A DNA stretch of 20,599 nt. Source: a bacterium (lineage in GTDB: Bacteria; Arandabacterota; Arandabacteria; Arandabacterales; JALGWA01). The notes under the pieces were generated by a model that saw only the letters and a program-made list of their open reading frames with translations, did not search any database and had not been told where the DNA came from. The translations under genes were made by a program, and so were the position numbers. Shown here piece after piece: positions 9,405 to 19,608 of the stretch (within the stretch, counting starts at the first letter, position 1; every line of letters starts with the position of its first letter). The DNA lies in assembly GCA_050125095.1 (NCBI GenBank), contig JASFEA010000043.1, positions 1-20,599 of the forward strand. Reading direction: 5' to 3'.

Positions 9405-10571
9405 GTGATTACCTCCTCGCACATCGAGCTCAGCAAAAAGGCGTTGGAGGGTAATATCCGGTTTCTAAGGCGCAAAATCGGGAAAGACACGGTCTTCTCG
9501 TCGGTGATCAAGGGAAACGCCTACGGTCACAACATTGAAGACTTCGTCCCTCTAGCCGAAAGCTGCGGAGTCAGGCATTTCTCAGTATTCAACATTGAAG
9601 AAGCGGCAAGAGCGCACACCGTGCTGTCCGAAGAGAGCCACATCATGATTACCGGTTACATAGATGATAGAGACCTGGAATGGGTGATGACAAGGGGCAT
9701 GTCCTTTTATGTATTCGACGAGGCGAGGCTGCACGCCGCGGTCAAAGCCGCCAGGAAGACCGGTATTGCAGCGCGTGTCCATCTCGAATTGGAAACCGGT
9801 CTCAACCGCACCGGCCTGAACCGGAACGAACTCGAAGGTTGCCTCGAGATCATAGAAAAGAACCGGGACTGCATCAGGGTCGACGGAATCTGCACTCATT
9901 ATGCGGGAGCTGAGAGCATAGCGAATTTCTGGCGGATAAAGAACCAGGTAGAGGTTTTCAATGAGATCTCGGACGAGCTCAGGTCCAGGGGATTCACCGC
10001 TCCGGCTCGACACACCGCCTGCTCGGCGGCGGCCCTGCGCTACCCCGAGACGGTTATGGACATGGTTAGGTTCGGCATCGCGCAGTACGGCTACTGGCCG
10101 AGCAAGGAGACCCGGATACAGCACTTCGTCGAAGAGGAGCAGAGCGGAAAGCCGCCCAGGCGGAGTCCGCTCAAGGCCGTCCTTACATGGAAGAGCCGGA
10201 TCATGGGAATCAAGTCGGTAAGCGCCGGCGAATATGTGGGCTATGGAACCATCTACCAGGCCAGCCGCCGCCAGCAGATCGCCACCGTTCCGGTGGGCTA
10301 CTTCCAGGGATTCGCCCGCGATCTCAGCAACCTGGGCTACGTGCTGGTTCACGGCAAGAGAGCCGCGGTACTGGGTTTCGTCAGCATGAACATGATAGTA
10401 ATCGATATCACTGGCATACCGGATGCGCGTAGAGGAGATGAGGTAGTCGTAATAGGCAAACAGGGAAGGAACGAGATGAGCGTCAGCGCCTTCGGCGAAA
10501 TGAGCCGGAACCTGAATTACGAGGTGCTGGTGCGCATTCCTTCGGAGATTCCCAGGATAGTCGTGGATTGA
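9405..10571 (+). CDS. alr: Alanine racemase family PLP enzyme
   Basis: VIKGNAYGH (PLP Lys), HLELETGLNRTG, CTHYA, MVRFGIAQYG, GEYVGYG (catalytic Tyr), PVGY and NYE. Confidence 0.9.
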   Translation: MITSSHIELSKKALEGNIRFLRRKIGKDTVFSSVIKGNAYGHNIEDFVPLAESCGVRHFSVFNIEEAARAHTVLSEESHIMITGYIDDRDLEWVMTRGMSFYVFDEARLHAAVKAARKTGIAARVHLELETGLNRTGLNRNELEGCLEIIEKNRDCIRVDGICTHYAGAESIANFWRIKNQVEVFNEISDELRSRGFTAPARHTACSAAALRYPETVMDMVRFGIAQYGYWPSKETRIQHFVEEEQSGKPPRRSPLKAVLTWKSRIMGIKSVSAGEYVGYGTIYQASRRQQIATVPVGYFQGFARDLSNLGYVLVHGKRAAVLGFVSMNMIVIDITGIPDARRGDEVVVIGKQGRNEMSVSAFGEMSRNLNYEVLVRIPSEIPRIVVD

Positions 10572-10631
10572 GCTCCGGGGTATATGAGCGCGGACGAACC
10601 GGTCAGACGAAGGCAGAGAATCGGAGGTTGC

Positions 10632-11087
10632 ATGGAGCTGAAAGTCAGGCGGATAGAGAGACAGGCCGACTTCGAGAATGGATTCACCAGAGAGGATTTT
10701 ATCGAGTTCCTCTATACGCACCTCGGTAGATTCGGCGACACCAGGTCGGCGATAGAAAAGGCCGTGGATTATGCTTTCTCCGAAACCGAGGGCAAGGGCG
10801 GATTCCTGGTTACCGCTCACCTGGGCGACGACCTCGTCGGCGAAGTGGTGATAAACGACACAGGCATGGCGGAATACGTTCCCGAGCACCTGCTTGTGTA
10901 CATTGCCGTCCACGGGGATTATCGCAGCAAGGGCCTGGGCGCCCGGATCATGGATGAGACATTCAGGATGTGTGAAGGCAACGTCGCCCTGCATGTGGAG
11001 TACGATAACCCGGCGAAGCGGTTCTACGAACGGCTCGGCATGAAAAGCAAGTACGCCGAGATGAGGTATATCAAGCAGGCTGAGTGA
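10632..11087 (+). CDS. GNAT family N-acetyltransferase
   Basis: Motif A IAVHGDYRSKGLG and motif B LHVEYDNPAKRFYERLG. GGAGG RBS precedes ATG 10632. Confidence 0.9.
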   Translation: MELKVRRIERQADFENGFTREDFIEFLYTHLGRFGDTRSAIEKAVDYAFSETEGKGGFLVTAHLGDDLVGEVVINDTGMAEYVPEHLLVYIAVHGDYRSKGLGARIMDETFRMCEGNVALHVEYDNPAKRFYERLGMKSKYAEMRYIKQAE

Positions 11088-11088
11088 T

Positions 11089-12198
11089 ATGGCAACGCTG
11101 ACGATCAACATCGACCGGATACTCGGGAATATCCGCAAGCTGAATGCCTACTTGTCGGATCACGACATAACCTGGTCTCTCGTGACCAAGATGCTGAGCG
11201 GTTATCCTCCGATCCTCGAACCCCTTCTTGAGGCGCCATGCATGAAGTCGCTTCACTCGGTCGGCGACTCCCGCATATCCAATCTGCGCGTGATCAAGAA
11301 GATAAGACCCGACATCGTTACCATATATATAAAGCCGCCGGCAGTGAACCAGGCCAGGAACGTAATCCGTTACGCCGACATTTCTCTCAACACGACATAC
11401 CGCACGATTCTCGAATTGAGCAAAGAGGCAACGAGGTACGGCAAGGTGCACAGAATCGTGATCATGCTTGAACTCGGCGAACTGCGCGAAGGGATCGCCC
11501 GGGACAATGTCATAGAGTTCTACGAGAGAGTATTCCACCTCCCCAACATCCGAGTCATCGGTCTTGGCACCAATCTGGGCTGCATGTTCGGAATCGAGCC
11601 GACCTATGACAAGTTGATACAGCTCAACCTGTTCGCCCAGCTCGTGAAGGCCAGGTTCCAGCAGGACTTCGAGCTGATCTCGGGCGGGAGCTCCATCACG
11701 CTCCCGCTTTTGGGCAGGGGCAAGATCCCCCGCGGCGTCAACCACCTCAGGATCGGTGAGACAGCCTTCCTGGGAAGATCGCTGCTGACTGGGAGACGAT
11801 TCCGAGATCTCTCGACAAACGCATTCGATTTTTCAGCCGAGATAGTCGAGATAGAGAAGAAATCCTCGATGCCTGACGGGCGGATAAGCGACGCAAGCGT
11901 CGGACATGCCGTCGGGTCCGACAGGACCGTAGAGGAAGACGGACAGGAATACCGGTGCCTGGTGGACTTCGGCCAGGTGGACGTCGGACTGGATGACCTG
12001 ACCATAAAGGACAGGGGTATCAGATTCGTTGGCACCACGTCGGACATGACGGTCTACAGCCTCGGTAAAGACAAGAGGAAGTGGAAGGTAGGGAAGCAAA
12101 TGCAGTTCAGTCCCAACTACATGGCCGTCGCGCGGCTTATGAACAACAGGTATGTCGAAAAGAAGGTAGTCCGGAGCGTGCCCGGCGAGGAGCCGTGA
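11089..12198 (+). CDS. Alanine/ornithine (lysine) racemase family PLP-dependent enzyme
   Basis: LVTK (Lys34), GDSRISNL, GELREG, GTNLGC (Cys165), ISGGSS, NHLRIGE and SDM. It starts 1 nt after the GNAT stop. Confidence 0.82.
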   Translation: MATLTINIDRILGNIRKLNAYLSDHDITWSLVTKMLSGYPPILEPLLEAPCMKSLHSVGDSRISNLRVIKKIRPDIVTIYIKPPAVNQARNVIRYADISLNTTYRTILELSKEATRYGKVHRIVIMLELGELREGIARDNVIEFYERVFHLPNIRVIGLGTNLGCMFGIEPTYDKLIQLNLFAQLVKARFQQDFELISGGSSITLPLLGRGKIPRGVNHLRIGETAFLGRSLLTGRRFRDLSTNAFDFSAEIVEIEKKSSMPDGRISDASVGHAVGSDRTVEEDGQEYRCLVDFGQVDVGLDDLTIKDRGIRFVGTTSDMTVYSLGKDKRKWKVGKQMQFSPNYMAVARLMNNRYVEKKVVRSVPGEEP

Positions 12199-12379: not shown

Positions 12380-13960
12380 ATGGACACCGACAAGGGGGTA
12401 ATATTCACACGTAGGGCCTCGGGGCTCGTTCGCGAGCTCTCGTGGTTCGATGTTTTCATATTCGTGGTGGCGGGCCCGGCCGCATCCGGGGTTACGTTTT
12501 ACTCCGTCTCCACCGCGGCCGATTTCCCAGGGGCCAGCCTCCCGCTGGCCTTCCTCGTGGGGCTCGCAGTCTTCCTTCCCGTGACGCTGCTGGTGGCAAT
12601 CACATCCGCCACCATGCCCAGGTCCGGGGGCCTCTACATAGTAGTCAGCAGGGTTATGGGCCCGACTCTCGGGTACCTGAGCGCCTGGCTCCTGTTCATC
12701 GGCTACGGCATCTCCAGCGGCGTACTCGGCTACATAGTCGTGGGGCTCATGGGCTCGGCGTTCTCCACCGCGGCCCTCACGAGCGACATCGGCTGGCTGG
12801 CGAGGCTCGGCCAAATCATGCAGGCGCCGGTATGGCAGCTCGTTGGAGGGGCGCTTGTGGTGGGGCTATTCTGGCTCATCGCCTACAGGGGCATACGCAA
12901 GGTAAAGTCCATGATGCGGGCGCTGTTTTTCATACCGCTCGTCGGGACCGTAGTCGCAATACTGTGGTTTGTGTTCTCGGGAGGGCCCGAGAGCGCGGCG
13001 GCCGGCTTCAACGGCACCTGGGGCGCGGGCGCCTACCAGGCCATAGTCCAGAAAGCAGCCGAACTGGGGTGGACCCGGCACTCATTCGACCTGGGCAGCA
13101 CGATCAGCGCTCTGATCGTCGTAATATGGGCTTACGCGAGCATCACCATAATCAACTATGCGGGCGGCGAGATAAAGACTCCCAAGACAAGCATGATAAG
13201 GGGATTTACGATCGGCACGATTTTCGTCGGCGTCTTCTACGTGGTCATCGTGCAGAGCGTGTACGGCGCCTTCGGGGAGTTCATCGCTTCCTACGATTTT
13301 CTGTACGATCACCATCCGGAAGTGCTGTCGGGAATAATGGGCGGACTGGTGAAGCCCTCCGTGCCTTTCTATTTCATGGCCGTCGCGGGCAACGTGTGGT
13401 TCGGCCTTGTCGTGGCCCTCACTATCGCCCTGTGGTACGCGAACTCCATACTCCCGGGCTTCCTAGCCAATTCCAGGCTCGCCTTCGCGCTTTCCATGGA
13501 CAAGTCTTTTCCCAAGGCGCTGTCGGCGGTCAACCGGCGCACGGGTTCGCCTACCAACGCGGTCCATCTCAATGCCCTGTTCTGCTTCCTCGGCGTGCTC
13601 ATGATGATGCTCTCAGTGGACGTGATTCTCTCAATACTCACCATCACAACATTCTTTATCTTCTGGCCGTTCGGCCTCAGCGCGATGCTGCTACCCTATC
13701 ACAAACGTGAGATCTACGACCGCTCGCCGGTACAGTGGAGTCTCTTCGGGCTTCCCCTGATGACCCTGCTGGGCGGTTTTACCTTCCTGGCCGGCTGGTT
13801 CTTTATTTACCTGTCGCTCAGGAACTTCAGCCCTCCGGTGATGATGACCCTGATAGGCGTAATGCTGGCCGGAATCGTCCTGTACCTGTACCAGCAGGCC
13901 AAGAACAAGAAGGAGGGCGTGGACATAGACAGCATATATTCCCAGATACCACCTGAATGA
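12380..13960 (+). CDS. APC family amino acid/polyamine permease
   Basis: FTRRASGLVRELS N-terminus, MPRSGGLYIVVSR, GGEIKTP and SRLAFALSMDKSFP motifs, many TM helices, and a C-terminal IPPE. GGAGG RBS precedes ATG 12380. Confidence 0.9.
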   Translation: MDTDKGVIFTRRASGLVRELSWFDVFIFVVAGPAASGVTFYSVSTAADFPGASLPLAFLVGLAVFLPVTLLVAITSATMPRSGGLYIVVSRVMGPTLGYLSAWLLFIGYGISSGVLGYIVVGLMGSAFSTAALTSDIGWLARLGQIMQAPVWQLVGGALVVGLFWLIAYRGIRKVKSMMRALFFIPLVGTVVAILWFVFSGGPESAAAGFNGTWGAGAYQAIVQKAAELGWTRHSFDLGSTISALIVVIWAYASITIINYAGGEIKTPKTSMIRGFTIGTIFVGVFYVVIVQSVYGAFGEFIASYDFLYDHHPEVLSGIMGGLVKPSVPFYFMAVAGNVWFGLVVALTIALWYANSILPGFLANSRLAFALSMDKSFPKALSAVNRRTGSPTNAVHLNALFCFLGVLMMMLSVDVILSILTITTFFIFWPFGLSAMLLPYHKREIYDRSPVQWSLFGLPLMTLLGGFTFLAGWFFIYLSLRNFSPPVMMTLIGVMLAGIVLYLYQQAKNKKEGVDIDSIYSQIPPE

Positions 13961-13976
13961 GAATGGAGTTTATCTT

Positions 13977-14927
13977 ATGGCAAAGCTGTTCTTCTCGGTA
14001 GACGTTCACGGCGCGGAGAGCGTGTGGAGGAAGTGGTTGAAAGTGCCCGAGCTCTACGGAGTCGACGGTATGCTTCTCTGCGGAGACCTGACGGGCAAGT
14101 CGCTGGTTCCGCTCATCGAGCAGCCGGACGGAAAGTACAAGGCGTTTTACTTCGGACAGAACTGGGAACTCGAGCCGGGAGCCGAGGTAGCCGAGATGGA
14201 GAAGCGCATTCGTGACGCCGGGGCCTATACCATGAGATCCGACCCCGACCGCGTGGAGGAACTTAAGGACAATCCGGCGAAGGTCGAGAGCCTGATGATG
14301 GGCATGATAATCGACAGGATGAGCCGGTGGATGGAGATACTGCTCGAGACCGTGGACGTCAGCAAGGTGGACGCCATTGTGATGCCCGGCAACGACGACG
14401 ACCACGAGGTAGACGATGTGATCAAGTCGTTCGGTGACAGGGGCATTAAGTGGTGTCTCGACGGGGTACTATCTGTGCTGGGGGCTCCCATGGTGAGCCT
14501 GGACTACGTTAATCCCACACCCTGGGACACGCCCAGAGAGGACAGCGAGAAAGGCCTTTCCAAGAGAATCAGCAGGATCGTCGGAAAGCTCGATGACCCC
14601 TCGGCGGCGATCTTCAACTTCCACGCCCCGCCCCACGGGACCATGCTGGACCTGGCCCCCGAGCTCGACGCCAGCAGAAAGCCCGTGACAGTGGCCGGCC
14701 AGGTCAACTTCGTGCACGTTGGGAGCAAGGCTGTCCTGAAATCCATCGAGGAATACCAGCCCATGATCGGGCTGCACGGGCATATACACGAGTCCTCCGG
14801 GGACGACAGGGTCGGCCGCACCGTTGTGGTGAATCCCGGGTCCGAGTACGGCGAGGGCATCCTCAGGGGCTACATTCTGGACATCAAGGACTCCCGGGTC
14901 GTCAACCAGTGGAAAGTCGAGGGCTGA
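13977..14927 (+). CDS. Calcineurin-like metallophosphoesterase (Icc-related)
   Basis: All five motifs are present: DVHG, GDLTGK, PGNDD, FHAPP and HGHIHE, plus NPGS. GGAG RBS. Confidence 0.88.
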   Translation: MAKLFFSVDVHGAESVWRKWLKVPELYGVDGMLLCGDLTGKSLVPLIEQPDGKYKAFYFGQNWELEPGAEVAEMEKRIRDAGAYTMRSDPDRVEELKDNPAKVESLMMGMIIDRMSRWMEILLETVDVSKVDAIVMPGNDDDHEVDDVIKSFGDRGIKWCLDGVLSVLGAPMVSLDYVNPTPWDTPREDSEKGLSKRISRIVGKLDDPSAAIFNFHAPPHGTMLDLAPELDASRKPVTVAGQVNFVHVGSKAVLKSIEEYQPMIGLHGHIHESSGDDRVGRTVVVNPGSEYGEGILRGYILDIKDSRVVNQWKVEG

Positions 14928-15766
14928 GCTTGGAAGCGAGAATTCCGCCCGGTGTGCATGCTCCATTTCTGGAGGAAGGCGCGGCCCTCACAGGGGATAA
15001 CCTGGAGAAGCAGGAGAGCGAATTCGCCGCATTGCTACATGAGTTCATGGAAAGGGCCGCCGGTCACGGCGCCACCGTCAGGGTCATCGGGTCTCTGGCC
15101 TTCCGGCTTAAATGCCCGGATTACAAATACATCCAGTACGACAACGGCCGCTATCTCACCGACATCGACTTCGTCACGTATTCCCGGGACATAGCCGGCG
15201 TTCAGGACATGTTCGCCGGCATGGGCTGGGAAGAGAACATGAATGTGCTGCGTCTCTTCGGTGACAAGAGGAGGATATTCTACCATCCCTCGCTCCCCCT
15301 TCATTCGGACATCTTCCTCGACAAACTCCGCTTCTGCCACGAGATAGACTTCAGGGAAAGACTGGAACTGGAAAGCCCCACCATAACCCTCATAGACCTC
15401 CTCCTGGAAAAACTCCAGATCGTTCAGATTAATCGCAAGGACCTCGTGGATCTGATGGTGCTTCTCAGCCAATACCCGGTGGACAGGGAACCGGGCGCCA
15501 CGGACAGCATAGACGGTTCCAGGCTGGCGGCGCTTTGCGGCCGCGACTGGGGCTGGTGGCGCACCGCCACAATGAACCTTCGCAAGGCCAATGAGTTCGC
15601 GGGAGACTTCATCTCCGGTGAGGACGCCCGGAGAGTGAGAGATAGACTGGACATCCTGGCGGCCATGGTGGAGGCCGAACCAAAAGGCCTTGGCTGGAGG
15701 ATCCGCTCGGCAATAGGCGACAGGATGCGCTGGTACAGGGAAGTAGAAGAAGTCGAAAGGGACTGA
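14909..15766 (+). CDS. Uncharacterised Pol-beta superfamily nucleotidyltransferase
   Basis: hGS motif (RVIGSLA), DxD (TDIDF), a third acidic residue (SDIFLD), and a helical C-terminal KLQI..INRKD..D. The start is uncertain (GTG 14909, TTG 14930 or GTG 14954). Confidence 0.7.
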   Translation: MESRGLSLEARIPPGVHAPFLEEGAALTGDNLEKQESEFAALLHEFMERAAGHGATVRVIGSLAFRLKCPDYKYIQYDNGRYLTDIDFVTYSRDIAGVQDMFAGMGWEENMNVLRLFGDKRRIFYHPSLPLHSDIFLDKLRFCHEIDFRERLELESPTITLIDLLLEKLQIVQINRKDLVDLMVLLSQYPVDREPGATDSIDGSRLAALCGRDWGWWRTATMNLRKANEFAGDFISGEDARRVRDRLDILAAMVEAEPKGLGWRIRSAIGDRMRWYREVEEVERD

Positions 15767-15773
15767 CCGCAGT

Positions 15774-17267
15774 CTAGCCCAGGAGCCGCTGGGCCCCGTA
15801 GAAGCACTTCTTGGAATACACGATGGGATAGGAGCGGAGGTTGGCCATGCTGATAAGGGCCCTCCGGCCCAGAAAGCCGATGGCGCTCGGAAACGTTCTC
15901 CACACATAGCTGATATTCTGGATCGCCTTCCTGGGCCGCATATAGAAGGATCTATAGGCCGCAATCTGAATCCGTATCAGCTCATCAGGAGTCACATGAT
16001 CCATCTCTATCACGGGGTGCAGACCCGAGTACATACCCCAGTCATCGGTGAGAAGGCGGTCCTTCATTTTCTCGAAGGTCTTGGAGCCGGGGTACGGGGT
16101 CAGCAACGAGAACTGGGCCCTGCGCGGATCCAGCCGCTTTGCGAAGTCTATTGTCTCCATCATCATCTGCTTTGTCTCATGGGGCGCGCCGAGTATAAAG
16201 GCACCCGTCACTTCGACCCCGTTTTTCCTGAGGATCTCCATGGCTTTGAAAGAGTCATCGACCTGTGCTTTCTTGCCGTACCCATCCAGAGCCTCCTGGC
16301 TGCCGCTCTCAAAGCCTATGAAGGTCCACCTGAGACCGGCCCGCGCCATTGCCCGGACCATGTCCGGATTCTCGACTATTGTATCTACGCGGGTCATACC
16401 GCCCCAGATGATGTCCCACCCCCGGGCCAGGATCTTCTCGGAGAGCTCTATGGCCCGGCCGGGGTTCAGCGTGAGGTTGTCATCTACGAATGAAATCGCG
16501 CGATAGCCGTATTTACTTTGCAGCAGCTCCACCTCGGCAAGAATGTTGTCCGCGGACCTCGCCCGCCAGCGGACGCCGAAAAAGCGCGAGGACGAACAGA
16601 ATTCGCATTTGAAGGGACAGCCCCTGGATGTAACCACCGTAGTGCTGAGTCGCCCGTTCATCCTCTCCTTATAGAGATTCATGGGCAATAGGTCCCTGGC
16701 CGGGAAGGGGAGAGCGTCAAGATCTCTGATGAACGGGGCGTCGGGTGTCCTGCGGACTTCGCCGTCTTCCATATACGAGACGCCCCTGACGTCTTCGAGG
16801 GCTCTCTTGTTCTGGAGGAATTCCACAAGCGACAGAAGTGAGTATTCGCCCTCATTCCGGACGACGTAATCTACCGCTCCTGTCTCCAGGGCGTCTGCGT
16901 CCTGGAAGCTGACGTGAGGCCCGCCCATCACCACCACGGCGCCCTGCTCTCTGGCGAGCCTGGCGATTTCAAGGGATTGCGGGTATCTTGACGTATCGAC
17001 TGAAATGCCAACGAGATCGAATTCCCCGTACGGGTACCTGGACCAGTGCTGCGTCTCTACGGCGAAGTCGACTATACTTACCTGGCAATGGTCCCTGAGA
17101 ACGGCGGCGATATAGGCCAGGCCCAGAGGGGGGCGGCTTATGCCCAGGATCCCGTAGGAGAAGCCGCCGTGGGGATTGACCAGCAGCACCTTTGAAACGT
17201 CTCTGGGCATTCTGGCGGAGCCTACCTCAAGATCGGCCGCGCAGGCGGCATCCGGAATCGATTTCAT
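15774..17267 (-). CDS. B12-binding domain radical SAM protein (class B methyltransferase-like)
   Basis: N-terminal PPLGLAYIAA and GGPHVS; SRGCPFKCEFC (CxxxCxxC); FVDDN, IGFESG, FILGAP and LTPYPGS. The start is uncertain (17291, 17267 or 17210). Confidence 0.9.
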   Translation of the reverse strand: MKSIPDAACAADLEVGSARMPRDVSKVLLVNPHGGFSYGILGISRPPLGLAYIAAVLRDHCQVSIVDFAVETQHWSRYPYGEFDLVGISVDTSRYPQSLEIARLAREQGAVVVMGGPHVSFQDADALETGAVDYVVRNEGEYSLLSLVEFLQNKRALEDVRGVSYMEDGEVRRTPDAPFIRDLDALPFPARDLLPMNLYKERMNGRLSTTVVTSRGCPFKCEFCSSSRFFGVRWRARSADNILAEVELLQSKYGYRAISFVDDNLTLNPGRAIELSEKILARGWDIIWGGMTRVDTIVENPDMVRAMARAGLRWTFIGFESGSQEALDGYGKKAQVDDSFKAMEILRKNGVEVTGAFILGAPHETKQMMMETIDFAKRLDPRRAQFSLLTPYPGSKTFEKMKDRLLTDDWGMYSGLHPVIEMDHVTPDELIRIQIAAYRSFYMRPRKAIQNISYVWRTFPSAIGFLGRRALISMANLRSYPIVYSKKCFYGAQRLLG

Positions 17268-17476
17268 GAAATTGCTTTCCCTGCTCCCCACCCCATCGTC
17301 AAGGGGTCATAGATAGAAGCTTTAACGAGAGAGTAGCACCCCGGCCGAATCGAGGCAAGAAAATAACGACAGGGAATTTACAGCCGCCATTTGCTGAGAC
17401 AGCCCGCCGACTCAGCGGGCGCAGGTGAACGGCCGCCGGCGTTTCCGGTACAACCCGGGTCAGGGAAACTGGCGGT

Positions 17477-17505
17477 TTGACATAGAGGCCGTTTCGCAAT
17501 ATAGT
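17477..17505 (+). promoter_or_regulatory. Near-consensus sigma70 promoter of the glyA-DUF1847 operon
   Basis: TTGACA (17477-17482), 17-bp spacer, TATAGT (17500-17505). Confidence 0.7.
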
Positions 17506-17534
17506 CTCGGTTGGCCTCAAACCTTGAATTACGC

Positions 17535-17560
17535 GCAATCACAGGCAATCACAAGCAATG
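17535..17560 (+). repeat. Short 10-bp-period direct repeat in the glyA leader
   Basis: GCAATCACAG-GCAATCACAA-GCAATG, abutting the GGAGGG RBS. Confidence 0.6.
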
Positions 17561-17569
17561 GAGGGAATC

Positions 17570-19021
17570 ATGTCAGACCTCAAGGCCAAGCTCGGGAACG
17601 TGCTTTCGAGGACGGTGGAGAATAACCTCTGGCGCCAGCGCAGGTGCTTCAACCTCATCCCGTCCGAGACCACGCCCAGCCTGCTGGTAAAGATGTGCGA
17701 GATCTCGGATCCGGCGGGCCGCTACGCCGAGCACCGCACCATGAAGGGCAAGGAGATCTATTTCTACCAGGGAATCGACTTCATTCGCGATGTCGAGGAG
17801 GAGTGCCGTGACGCCATAAGGGAATACTTCGGCTGCGAGGAGGCCGAGCTCCGCACCATAAGCGGCCAGATGGCCAACGAGGTCGTCTTCAAGGCCATGG
17901 CCAGGTGGAAGTCGTCGCCCAAGGAAGGCGTCATGCGCCGCATGCGGCTCGTCATGAACAACGACCTGACCAAGGGCGGCCACCTGAGCTCGCAGCCCAT
18001 GGGGGCGCTGTTCAACTACGTCGACATGGACGCCGAGACCCACAGGGAAGCCGTTGTCAACTTTCCCATCCGCTCCGACAACCTCTACAAGATAGACGCC
18101 GACCGCATGGTGGAGCTCATAAAGGAGCGCAGGCCCGACCTCATCGTCTTCGGAAAGAGCATGTTCATATATCCCGAGCCCGTTAAGGAAGCTTTCGAGG
18201 CCTGCAAAGACCTCGACCCCAGGCCGGTGATCATGTTCGACATGGCCCATGTGCTGGGGCTTTACGGGGCCTTTCAGGAGCCGCTGGCCGAGGGCGCCGA
18301 CCTGGTGACGGGGAGCACTCACAAGACTTTTTTCGGGCCCCAGCGCGGAGTGGTGGTGAGCAACATGGTGAAGGGCTCGGACTTCCGCAAGGTGTGGATC
18401 GAGATAAAGGGCAGGGCCTTCCCCGGCTCTACCAGCAACCACCACCTCGGGACGCTGCTGGCGCTGCTCGTGGCCACATACGAGATGAACCACTTCAAGC
18501 AGGCCTACCAGGAGCAGGTGCGCAAGAACGCCAGGGCCTTCGCGAAGGCTCTCGTGGACGCCGGCATCGCCGTCGAAGGCGACCCGGCCGACGGCTACAC
18601 CCAGACCCATCAGGTGCTGCTCCGCGTCAAGGAGCACGGCCTCGGGGACGAGATCGCGCGGAGGCTCGAGGAGAACAATATCGTATGCAATTACCAGGCG
18701 CTCGCCGATGACGAGACCTTCCTGGAGCCGAGCGGCCTGCGCACGGGAGTCCAGGAGATGACGCGCTTCGGCATGGTGGAAGCGGACTTCGGGCCGCTGG
18801 CCGAGTTCATCGCCGACGTCGTGATCAAGAACAAGAACGTCGGGGATGAGGTCACGGCCTACCGTCAGAAGTTCCTCGAGATGAAGTTCTGCCTCCCGCC
18901 CCAGGACTCGGCCGAGCTCGGGGCGACGGTCCTGGAGTCGGTATTCCCCAAGAGCGGGTATGCGGCCAAGTTCGCCGGGAACATGCTCAAGGTAGCGGGG
19001 CGCATCCAGGAGGGCAAATAG
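17570..19021 (+). CDS. glyA: Serine hydroxymethyltransferase-family PLP enzyme (archaeal-like variant)
   Basis: LIPSE, RYAE...FYQG, SGQMAN, GGHLS, DMAHVLG, GSTHKT (PLP Lys), FPGSTSNHH and SGLRTG..E.TRFG. GGAGGG RBS precedes ATG 17570. Confidence 0.85.
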   Translation: MSDLKAKLGNVLSRTVENNLWRQRRCFNLIPSETTPSLLVKMCEISDPAGRYAEHRTMKGKEIYFYQGIDFIRDVEEECRDAIREYFGCEEAELRTISGQMANEVVFKAMARWKSSPKEGVMRRMRLVMNNDLTKGGHLSSQPMGALFNYVDMDAETHREAVVNFPIRSDNLYKIDADRMVELIKERRPDLIVFGKSMFIYPEPVKEAFEACKDLDPRPVIMFDMAHVLGLYGAFQEPLAEGADLVTGSTHKTFFGPQRGVVVSNMVKGSDFRKVWIEIKGRAFPGSTSNHHLGTLLALLVATYEMNHFKQAYQEQVRKNARAFAKALVDAGIAVEGDPADGYTQTHQVLLRVKEHGLGDEIARRLEENNIVCNYQALADDETFLEPSGLRTGVQEMTRFGMVEADFGPLAEFIADVVIKNKNVGDEVTAYRQKFLEMKFCLPPQDSAELGATVLESVFPKSGYAAKFAGNMLKVAGRIQEGK

Positions 19022-19023
19022 CC

Positions 19024-19608
19024 ATGAAGTGCGCCTACTGCGACAATAAAGAATGCACCTCGGGCAAAGACTGCACGGGCAAGGCGAGAGATGTAAAGGG
19101 GCTTTACAAGGACGAGGTCCTTGACATCGCGCGCATCGCTTCCCGAACCGAAGCCAGGTACTACATGAAAGAGCCCCGCATCGTGGAGATCATCGAGTTC
19201 GCCAAGGCCATGGGATATAAGAAAATAGGCATCGCATTCTGCATAGGGCTCTCGAGGGAGGCCGAGACCGTCCACTCGATTCTGAAGCAACACTTCGAGG
19301 TCTATTCGGTCTGCTGCAAGGTATGCGGCATCGCCAAGAAGGACTTCAACTTCGAGACCATAACGGATAATCCCGAGGAGGTCATGTGTAACCCGGCCGG
19401 CCAGGCCGCAATGCTCAATGACAAGGGCACGGACCTCAATCTCATCGTGGGGCTTTGCATCGGGCACGATATAGTCTTCACGAAAGTGTCGGAAGCGCCC
19501 GTGTCGACGCTGGTGGTCAAGGACAGGGTGCTGGCGCATAATCCCTGCGGGGCGATTTACTCGAGGTACTATCTTCGCAGGCTCGGGCCCGACCTCGTAA
19601 AAGACTAG
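19024..19608 (+). CDS. DUF1847 family Cys-rich (probable metal-binding) protein
   Basis: N-terminal CxxC..C..C, then RIVEIIEFAK, GIAFCIGL, VCCKVCG, MCNPAGQA, GLCIGHD and VKDRVLAHNP. It starts 2 nt after the glyA stop. Confidence 0.85.
   Translation: MKCAYCDNKECTSGKDCTGKARDVKGLYKDEVLDIARIASRTEARYYMKEPRIVEIIEFAKAMGYKKIGIAFCIGLSREAETVHSILKQHFEVYSVCCKVCGIAKKDFNFETITDNPEEVMCNPAGQAAMLNDKGTDLNLIVGLCIGHDIVFTKVSEAPVSTLVVKDRVLAHNPCGAIYSRYYLRRLGPDLVKD

Follow-up and report, generated by a model that had tools for sequence, protein, structure and literature searches.

Contig JASFEA010000043.1 of assembly GCA_050125095.1, a 20,599-nt stretch of bacterial DNA that is called the window here, carries three adjoining genes that encode an APC-superfamily permease, a metallophosphoesterase (MPE) and a protein of the nucleotidyltransferase fold (NT). 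These three genes, hereafter the trio, almost certainly form one inherited functional unit, which recurs in bacteria and in archaea. Judged by the conservation of their active-site residues, both enzymes should be catalytically intact, and we tentatively propose that they constitute a substrate-independent write/erase nucleotidylation switch on uptake, acting through a target common to all modules of this kind.

Organization of the trio in the window

The genes of the trio and the elements within them are as follows.

12380..13960, plus strand: APC-superfamily permease of the trio-linked subfamily, 526 aa, with a Pfam AA_permease_2 match
13916..13957, plus strand: extreme C-terminal tail of the permease, residues 513-526, G-V-D-I-D-S-I-Y-S-Q-I-P-P-E, conserved among the permeases of the loci
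13977..14927, plus strand: binuclear MPE, 316 aa, with conserved metal-ligand positions and GNDD replacing GNH[DE], predicted from an AlphaFold2 (AF2) model
14103..14351, plus strand: inserted sub-domain of the MPE, residues ~43-125, between motifs II and III, by the secondary structure of the model
14388..14399, plus strand: GNDD box of the MPE, G138-N139-D140-D141
14909 or 14930 to 15766, plus strand: NT, 285 aa from GTG 14909 or 278 aa from TTG 14930, predicted from an AF2 model and structural matches
15089..15310, plus strand: catalytic nucleotidyltransferase (NTase) motifs of NT, numbered from GTG 14909, namely
15089-15094, plus strand: G61-S62
15161-15169, plus strand: D85-I-D87
15308-15310, plus strand: D134
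15731..15760, plus strand: conserved C-terminal segment of NT, W-Y-R-E-V-E-E-V-E-R, which recurs across clades

A GGAGG box precedes the ATG start of the permease gene (12380) by 5 nt, and a 16-nt gap separates its end at 13960 from the MPE start at 13977. NT may start at GTG 14909, with a 19-nt overlap with the MPE gene, or at TTG 14930, 2 nt past the MPE stop, which is the start used by its closest homologues (P0001 and P0002). The tight packing of the three genes, claimed in an earlier reading made from the sequence alone (the sequence-only reading), agrees with both the list of open reading frames (ORFs) and the junction sequences. Rfam gave no match at E<=1 in the whole window, and sites resembling promoters or terminators around the trio did not exceed the shuffled-sequence expectation to any useful degree.

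Conservation and inheritance of the unit

The locus set comprised the best 79 of 294 stretches with NT relatives, obtained by scanning one genome of each prokaryotic species, in which the partner genes were found by tblastn with the window's own proteins as queries. The trio lies within 5 kb in 56 of the 79 loci, 39 of them in the order seen in the window (permease, MPE, NT) and 17 in another order or orientation. Because the same trio recurs in other genomes, a chance arrangement is excluded. One partner only was found in 9/79 loci, an undercount in that locus L075 has a permease by clustering, and the flanks of another nine are shorter than 3 kb, which leaves them unjudgeable. By record titles and tree, the bacterial loci belong to Fermentibacterota, Cloacimonadota, Eisenbacteria, WOR-3, Armatimonadota, Desulfuromonadaceae, Chloroflexota, Thermomicrobiota, Actinomycetota, Alphaproteobacteria and Acidobacteriota, and the archaeal loci to genomes labelled Thermococci or Methanomicrobia and to Bathyarchaeia, Thermoprotei and Nitrososphaerales. 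The lineages, more than ten phyla from both domains, include uncultured sediment and soil groups; similar neighbourhoods in archaea and some bacteria, as mentioned in the sequence-only reading, do exist.

Co-occurrence was followed in 121 genomes of the class to which one Chloroflexota match belongs, with an NT profile at E<=1e-20 and an MPE profile at E<=1e-40. NT was found in 29 of these genomes and MPE in 27, with both in 26, one alone in four and neither in 91. The NT-only genomes (3/121) hold two partial matches and one match at a contig start, and the MPE of the one MPE-only genome lies near a contig end. There are five copies of each gene in genome G037 and two of each in seven genomes, the exception being G135 with one NT and three MPEs, and paired copies lie 1-8 kb apart. 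The 121 genomes are related, and no p-value is given for the co-occurrence. The supposition that the three genes travel together is upheld by the 56 loci and by this pattern alike.

In the window's own phylum NT is present in only 2/18 genomes, so the unit is accessory and not housekeeping. A housekeeping role had been suspected from the 70-86% identity across FCB phyla and was ruled out by this count. A quick maximum-likelihood tree of NT places the protein of the window within a Fermentibacterota group (SH-aLRT 95) inside a 36-row FCB-type clade (support 100), which adjoins Thermococci-like archaea, and the phylum labels require 16 changes where the minimum is 15. Mean distances between clades are 0.60 for the permease, 0.54 for NT and 0.49 for MPE, while within the FCB-type clade the permease has the lowest (0.24), followed by MPE (0.27) and NT (0.42), a pattern that fits a permease whose specificity may change while its partners stay constant. 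Pairwise distances are correlated among the three proteins (Spearman 0.73-0.88 for the 50 loci compared, 0.42-0.65 within FCB), with shared phylogeny contributing to these values.

A permease subfamily with a signature C-terminal tail

The permease belongs to the APC superfamily, with matches to Pfam AA_permease_2 (101.8 bits, cut-off 27, E 5.5e-29), covering residues 20-495, and to AA_permease (81.8 bits, cut-off 24.6). Against NCBIfam equivalogs (BcaP, FrlA, MmuP and others) it stays far under every cut-off, the best NCBIfam model being TIGR00909 (77.6 bits vs 556.8) and BcaP reaching 31.8 bits vs 690; likewise, phmmer against PDB gave nothing at E<=0.01. In the window's own genome it is the only APC-family match found by tblastn. 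A hydropathy scan gives approximately 11-12 hydrophobic segments, and both ends of the protein contain basic residues. If the standard 12-helix APC topology applies, the C-terminal tail would be cytoplasmic, as would the N-terminal segment with its near-invariant R-x-A-[ST]-G-L-x-R.

The trio-linked permeases are a distinct subfamily with a signature tail, which is described here for the first time. Among the locus permeases of at least 500 aa, 45/49 end in [IVL]-P-x-[EAD]-COOH, and the full pattern G-[VIL]-x(5-8)-[FYH]-x-x-[IVL]-P-x-[EAD]-COOH is present in 42/49, with near variants in four of the remainder. The three permeases that lack a tail of this kind are second paralogues, none of which adjoins an MPE. 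The motif persists in permeases with only 19-25% overall identity to that of the window. In the cultured haloarchaeon Halobellus limi the permease ends in G-V-D-L-D-N-L-H-S-E-I-P-K-D. When a permease profile was run against five genomes, the tail was present in all 12 strong matches (E<=1e-67) and in none of the three weak APC-family matches (E 4e-15 to 2e-8) of the same genomes.

A metallophosphoesterase with a GNDD box and an inserted sub-domain

The MPE was aligned with 27 relatives of identity down to 34% (34-42% for the distant ones). In these 28 sequences D9, H11, N139, H216, H269 and H271 are invariant and D37 is present in at least 90% of rows, so that the motif series of the calcineurin-like MPE superfamily (DxH, GD, GN, H, GH, GxH) is complete. 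The GNDD box is invariant in 28/28, including D140 at the position where the superfamily usually has the His of GNH[DE]. This His is a general acid or transition-state ligand. Between D37 of motif II and N139 of motif III lie 101 residues. The metal motifs, the GNDD variant and the long insert read from the window are thus all present and conserved across the family.

The AF2 model of the MPE (pLDDT 95.1) shows the four-layer alpha/beta sandwich, and it places strands and helices in the insert (E43-48, E54-58, E61-65, H69-80, E84-88, H90-97 and H100-125). Foldseek returned 171 PDB matches at E<=0.001, and all 44 of those listed have the MPE fold, the best being aq_1956 (2YVT; E 2.7e-11) and TT1561 (1UF3; E 2.2e-8). 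By sequence, 2YVT is also the sole PDB match, and a weak one (E 0.022), whereas the Pfam families Metallophos_2 (25.2 bits, cut-off 27) and Metallophos_3 (23.5 bits, cut-off 28.2) both stay under their cut-offs with matches limited to residues 243-291. The two nearest structures are structural-genomics proteins of Pfam Metallophos_3 that share 13-19% sequence identity with the MPE and have 225-257 residues compared with its 316, a length suggesting that they lack the sub-domain at 43-125. To our knowledge neither has an assigned function, and a literature search on them yielded nothing relevant. A 902-aa frame over an MPE in genome G108 was considered as a permease-MPE fusion but is only an artefactual lengthening of the ORF in high-GC DNA.

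Pol-beta nucleotidyltransferase fold of the third protein

NT has no family match in Pfam or NCBIfam. The sequence-only reading had taken it for a Pol-beta NTase from a GS...DID...D series, and both the motifs and the fold bear this out. Among the 79 NT sequences, G61, D85 and D134 are invariant (79/79 each), D87 is found in 77/79, and S62 is present in 53/79 with Ala in the other 26, which conforms to the hG[GS]...[DE]h[DE]h...h[DE]h motif of the Pol-beta NTase superfamily. The helical C-terminal domain (residues 161-272) has an invariant K-L-Q-I-V-x-I-N-x-K-D motif, and K-W-Y-x-[DE]-V-[ED]-E-V occurs near the C-terminus in all clades.

An AF2 model built on 30 homologues (pLDDT 90.2, pTM 0.88, with low confidence over the last residues) had no Foldseek match in PDB at E<=0.001, and every listed match was an NTase-fold protein. 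The model was then compared by VIA-align with 48,161 chains, for which 50 matches were listed. Eight NTase-fold chains gave Z 8.3-11.9: ANT(2'')-Ia (Z 11.9, 154 residues aligned, rmsd 3.2), the NTase-like protein 5UVD (11.3), MenT1 (11.1), JHP933 (10.0), LnuA (9.7, 137 residues aligned), MenT3 (9.5), MenT4 (9.3) and TM1012 (8.3), with the MenT proteins and JHP933 matching over 170-206 residues. From Z 6.7 downward followed the AbiEi antitoxin (6Y8Q, 6.7), FKRP, DNA polymerase beta, terminal uridylyltransferases, CCA-adding enzymes and RelA/SpoT. On this modelled structure, NT is a predicted Pol-beta-fold NTase with a helical C-terminal domain that belongs to the structural clade of ANT, LnuA, MenT and JHP933, a clade whose members act on small-molecule hydroxyls or tRNA ends.

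Within this clade, the small-molecule O-nucleotidyltransferases ANT(2'')-Ia and LnuA (PDB 4XJE, 4WH5) share the G-S...DxD...D core with NT at 12-16% sequence identity, but they are only 158-175 residues long, and NT differs from them by its extra conserved helical C-terminal domain, the lack of a resistance context and its linkage to MPE and permease. The DUF1814-type proteins MenT, AbiEii and JHP933 (8AN4, 6J7N, 6Y56, 4OK0) combine, like NT, an NTase core with a helical C-terminal domain, whereas NT has no cognate antitoxin gene, no significant AbiEii match and no mobile or defence context.

Pfam NTP_transf_5 (PF14907) matches the window's NT below threshold (13.3 bits, E 0.064, cut-off 31.2) and 25/30 family members in the same weak, sub-threshold manner (best E 4.1e-5), which would make it a distant relative at most, and an NT profile against PDB sequences found nothing better than E 0.087, to unrelated proteins. 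The family is large: a profile search of 1.84 billion representatives found 2,290 clusters (50% identity) with E<=0.001, of which 680 have E<=1e-30, and nearly all of the 150 listed clusters are single-domain proteins of 210-310 residues.

None of the three proteins could be assigned to a characterised family below the superfamily level. Searches of Pfam, NCBIfam, PDB and PADLOC, together with the literature, likewise brought up no characterised pathway or family, in keeping with the proposal that the module was undescribed. We found no account of the unit in the literature covered, which excludes subscription journals, and for the NT family we found no curated model, solved structure or paper.

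Genes adjoining the trio differ from clade to clade

Upstream of the trio, the window holds three genes identified by Pfam and NCBIfam matches.

9405-10571, plus strand: alanine racemase
10584-11087, plus strand: GNAT acetyltransferase
11089-12198, plus strand: ornithine-racemase-like enzyme of the pyridoxal phosphate type (263 bits vs cut-off 480)

At least one gene of this set stands beside the trio or NT in 19/36 FCB-type loci, and all three in 8, in an order that varies among loci. FCB-type loci additionally contain an M20 amidohydrolase (14/79 loci) and a class-III aminotransferase (10/79). Taken together, these genes look like a route for the acetylation and deacetylation of D/L-(di)amino acids. 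The best named NCBIfam equivalog of the M20 amidohydrolase is the N-acetyl-diaminobutyrate deacetylase DoeB2 (170 bits vs cut-off 550).

Other clades show other sets. In Thermococci-like archaea, a nitroreductase-family gene is found in seven loci and a PepD-type dipeptidase in five. A conserved ORF of approximately 230 aa without a Pfam match adjoins the trio in six loci (in the series L035-L042 of Thermococci-like archaea, and L055 and L056), an example being L038:4468-5148 on the minus strand. Chloroflexota, Alphaproteobacteria and some Bathyarchaeia carry a choline-kinase-family kinase (15/79 loci), for which the best NCBIfam match is the guanitoxin-pathway kinase GntI (295 bits vs cut-off 357), and the same clades carry a DAO+GCV_T demethylase of the dimethylglycine dehydrogenase (DMGDH) type (16/79 loci). 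In one bathyarchaeial locus (L073:4525-10461) a choline-kinase-like gene, an MttB-family methyltransferase, MPE, NT and permease stand together, with the MttB homologue between the kinase and the MPE. In aerobic lineages the DAO+GCV_T demethylase occupies the place equivalent to that of MttB in this locus.

The contexts differ even within a genome. G037, from the Chloroflexota class, has five NT/MPE pairs and six tail-bearing permeases (L081-L085), and a different catabolic set lies beside each module: glycerol-kinase-like and glycerol-3-phosphate (G3P)-oxidase-like genes with a GntR regulator; an agmatinase-like gene; a CN-hydrolase with a hydantoinase and an Amidohydro_3 enzyme; DUF1028 with S-Me-THD; and an E1 dehydrogenase. 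In G108, a creatininase (251 bits, cut-off 235) is encoded between permease and MPE. In Halobellus limi, the trio lies on a 398-kb plasmid (NZ_CP031312.1, 386259-389795; L104), where RefSeq labels NT a hypothetical protein, next to an IclR regulator, an iron alcohol dehydrogenase with choline dehydrogenase GbsB as its best match and an aldehyde dehydrogenase best matching betaine-aldehyde dehydrogenase, both dehydrogenases being under the cut-offs. What all these contexts have in common is that nitrogenous organic compounds are broken down or converted, with no single compound shared by all.

In two metagenome-assembled genomes NT is followed by an Amidohydro_3 enzyme. One, labelled Armatimonadota (L030; 8001-10341), has no permease or MPE within 8 kb, and its upstream genes match those of the trio locus L012, so that the module may have decayed or been split. 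The other is from Cloacimonadota (L029; 73-2413).

A putative write/erase control of uptake

In the mechanism that we propose, the permease would import a nitrogenous organic solute, which in the window is probably a D/L-amino acid or a diamino acid, because alanine racemase, GNAT and ornithine-racemase-like genes are adjacent. NT would transfer a nucleoside monophosphate from a nucleoside triphosphate onto a hydroxyl to form a phosphodiester, and the MPE would hydrolyse that phosphodiester, such that the pair could act as a write/erase switch on uptake. The target would be the permease complex itself, with MPE and NT docking on the tail, or a component bound to it. A complex prediction for MPE, NT and permease residues 480-526 (with the tail scored) gave a score of 0.00 in two runs, which speaks neither for nor against binding. 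Since the neighbours vary by clade while MPE, NT and the permease tail are constant, the target is most likely common to all modules, and these varying neighbours, together with the trio-specific tail, make the permease complex or a signal nucleotide a likelier target than the compound that is transported. A common target, which we tentatively favour, would most simply explain how the same enzymes can stand beside differing pathways. The sequence-only reading had suggested that the pair adds and removes a nucleoside monophosphate on a protein (perhaps the transporter) or on the transported amine or amino acid, or that it processes an imported phosphodiester or phosphoramidate conjugate, and this interpretation is supported in part. 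A more specific version, in which MPE and NT dock on the permease tail and reversibly nucleotidylate the transport complex or its bound ligand to gate uptake in bacteria and archaea alike, is possible but rather unlikely.

The nearest functional analogy may be the AmtB-GlnK-GlnD system, in which an ammonium importer is encoded with write/erase proteins, the writer being a Pol-beta-fold NTase and the eraser a metal-dependent phosphohydrolase. The trio differs from it in having no PII protein and no HD or ACT domain; its eraser would be a separate MPE, its NT belongs to the ANT/LnuA/MenT clade and not to that of GlnD and GlnE, and its transporter is of the APC type instead of an Amt channel.

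Several observations weigh against such a switch. The strongest is that the nearest structures are those of enzymes that modify small molecules (ANT(2''), LnuA) or tRNA 3' ends (MenT) and not proteins; likewise, no GlnE/GlnD-type chain is among the 50 listed structural matches, although the trio may nonetheless be a functional analogue of such switches. The permease tail has no invariant hydroxyl residue, its aromatic position being Y, F or H. In 5/79 loci NT has full flanks and yet no MPE or permease within 8 kb, and no fusion of the NT domain was found among proteins of 500-2000 aa, which is weak evidence. Finally, the choline-kinase-like and glycerol-kinase-like genes and the alcohol and aldehyde dehydrogenases among the neighbours hint at a phosphoester or amino-alcohol substrate chemistry.

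The last point leads to the main rival, itself a doubtful one, in which the two enzymes process an imported compound or phosphoester conjugate. The conjugate might be a zwitterionic phosphoester such as phosphocholine, phosphoethanolamine or one of their glycerophospho counterparts, or else some other nitrogen compound in phosphorylated or nucleotidylated form, from which the MPE would free the amine for neighbouring catabolic enzymes; alternatively, NT would O-nucleotidylate the solute after import, trapping or activating it, and the resulting diester would be resolved by the MPE. The structural proximity of NT to the small-molecule O-nucleotidyltransferases ANT(2'')-Ia and LnuA argues for this, as do the choline-kinase-like kinases, the DMGDH-like demethylases and the single MttB homologue, the G037 module beside glycerol-kinase-like and G3P-oxidase-like genes, and, in Halobellus limi, the GbsB-like and betaine-aldehyde-dehydrogenase-like genes next to the trio. 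It also counts in its favour that glycerophosphodiesters are hydrolysed by metallophosphoesterases such as GpdQ. However, the creatininase, agmatinase-like, hydantoinase, D/L-amino-acid and dipeptidase contexts offer no obvious common phosphoester or hydroxyl handle, and it is the permease that diverges from one context to another, with MPE and NT staying conserved. A transferase paired with a hydrolase of the bond it forms would moreover run a futile cycle unless the two were separated in time or substrate, and the window's own genome has no choline-kinase homologue by tblastn.

Another known system to compare with the trio is the Lic system for phosphocholine, with the permease LicB, the choline kinase LicA, LicC, the NTase-fold LicD and the esterase Pce. 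The likeness to the trio lies in the combination of a permease, an NTase-fold transferase and a phosphoesterase for an amino-alcohol phosphate, and in the choline-kinase-like neighbours of some trio clades. Differences are that no LicC-type cytidylyltransferase is present, that the Lic esterase is of a different fold and that most trio loci are without a kinase. Among the listed structural matches of NT, FKRP (Z 6.1), which we take to be classed as a LicD-type phosphotransferase, is the only one of that type.

It is improbable that the two enzymes form a signal-nucleotide pair, in which NT would make a linear or cyclic messenger depending on the transport state of the permease, the MPE would be its phosphodiesterase and the signal would control uptake or the adjacent catabolic operon. 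Such a function would be independent of the substrate, as in the proposed switch, it would make use of the intact active sites of both enzymes, and the class III cNMP phosphodiesterases (CpdA, Rv0805) are metallophosphoesterases. GntR-, IclR-, LacI- and TetR-type regulators often adjoin the modules, but regulators beside catabolic operons are commonplace; relatives of the cyclase type (CD-NTases, cGAS-like, OAS) reach only Z<=4.5, far below the ANT/MenT group, and the neighbourhoods showed no conserved receptor domain.

A MenT/AbiEii-like toxin module or anti-phage defence, with NT as a tRNA-nucleotidylating toxin neutralised by a neighbour, is very improbable in spite of the resemblance of the NT model to MenT1, MenT3 and MenT4, as no AbiEi/MenA-type antitoxin is adjacent, the neighbours that stay constant are the permease and MPE genes, Pfam AbiEii matches 1/30 NT family members (E 0.11) and the phylum labels cluster on the NT tree. 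Defence and phage origin were both rejected by searches, in which PADLOC-DB 2.0 had no match for NT or for the permease and matched the MPE to PDC-S10 only in part, over 42 residues, and 50,697 phage records gave no match.

If the NT/MPE pair does control or complete uptake, a class of nutrient importers has an unrecognised biochemical layer, which the annotation "amino acid permease, phosphoesterase, hypothetical protein" would miss. Halobellus limi, as a cultured carrier, opens the question to experiment.

Other features of the window

An ORF at 762-2146 encodes a branched-chain polyamine synthase (BpsA_C domain) and overlaps another frame, the C-terminal part of which is an S-adenosylmethionine decarboxylase; together they make a polyamine-synthesis pair that is unusual outside thermophiles. 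Downstream of the trio, positions 15774-19608 hold a minus-strand B12-binding radical SAM enzyme, then a 487-aa protein resembling serine hydroxymethyltransferase (SHMT) and then a DUF1847 protein. The SHMT-like protein, with 262 bits vs a cut-off of 335, is the sole SHMT match in its genome.

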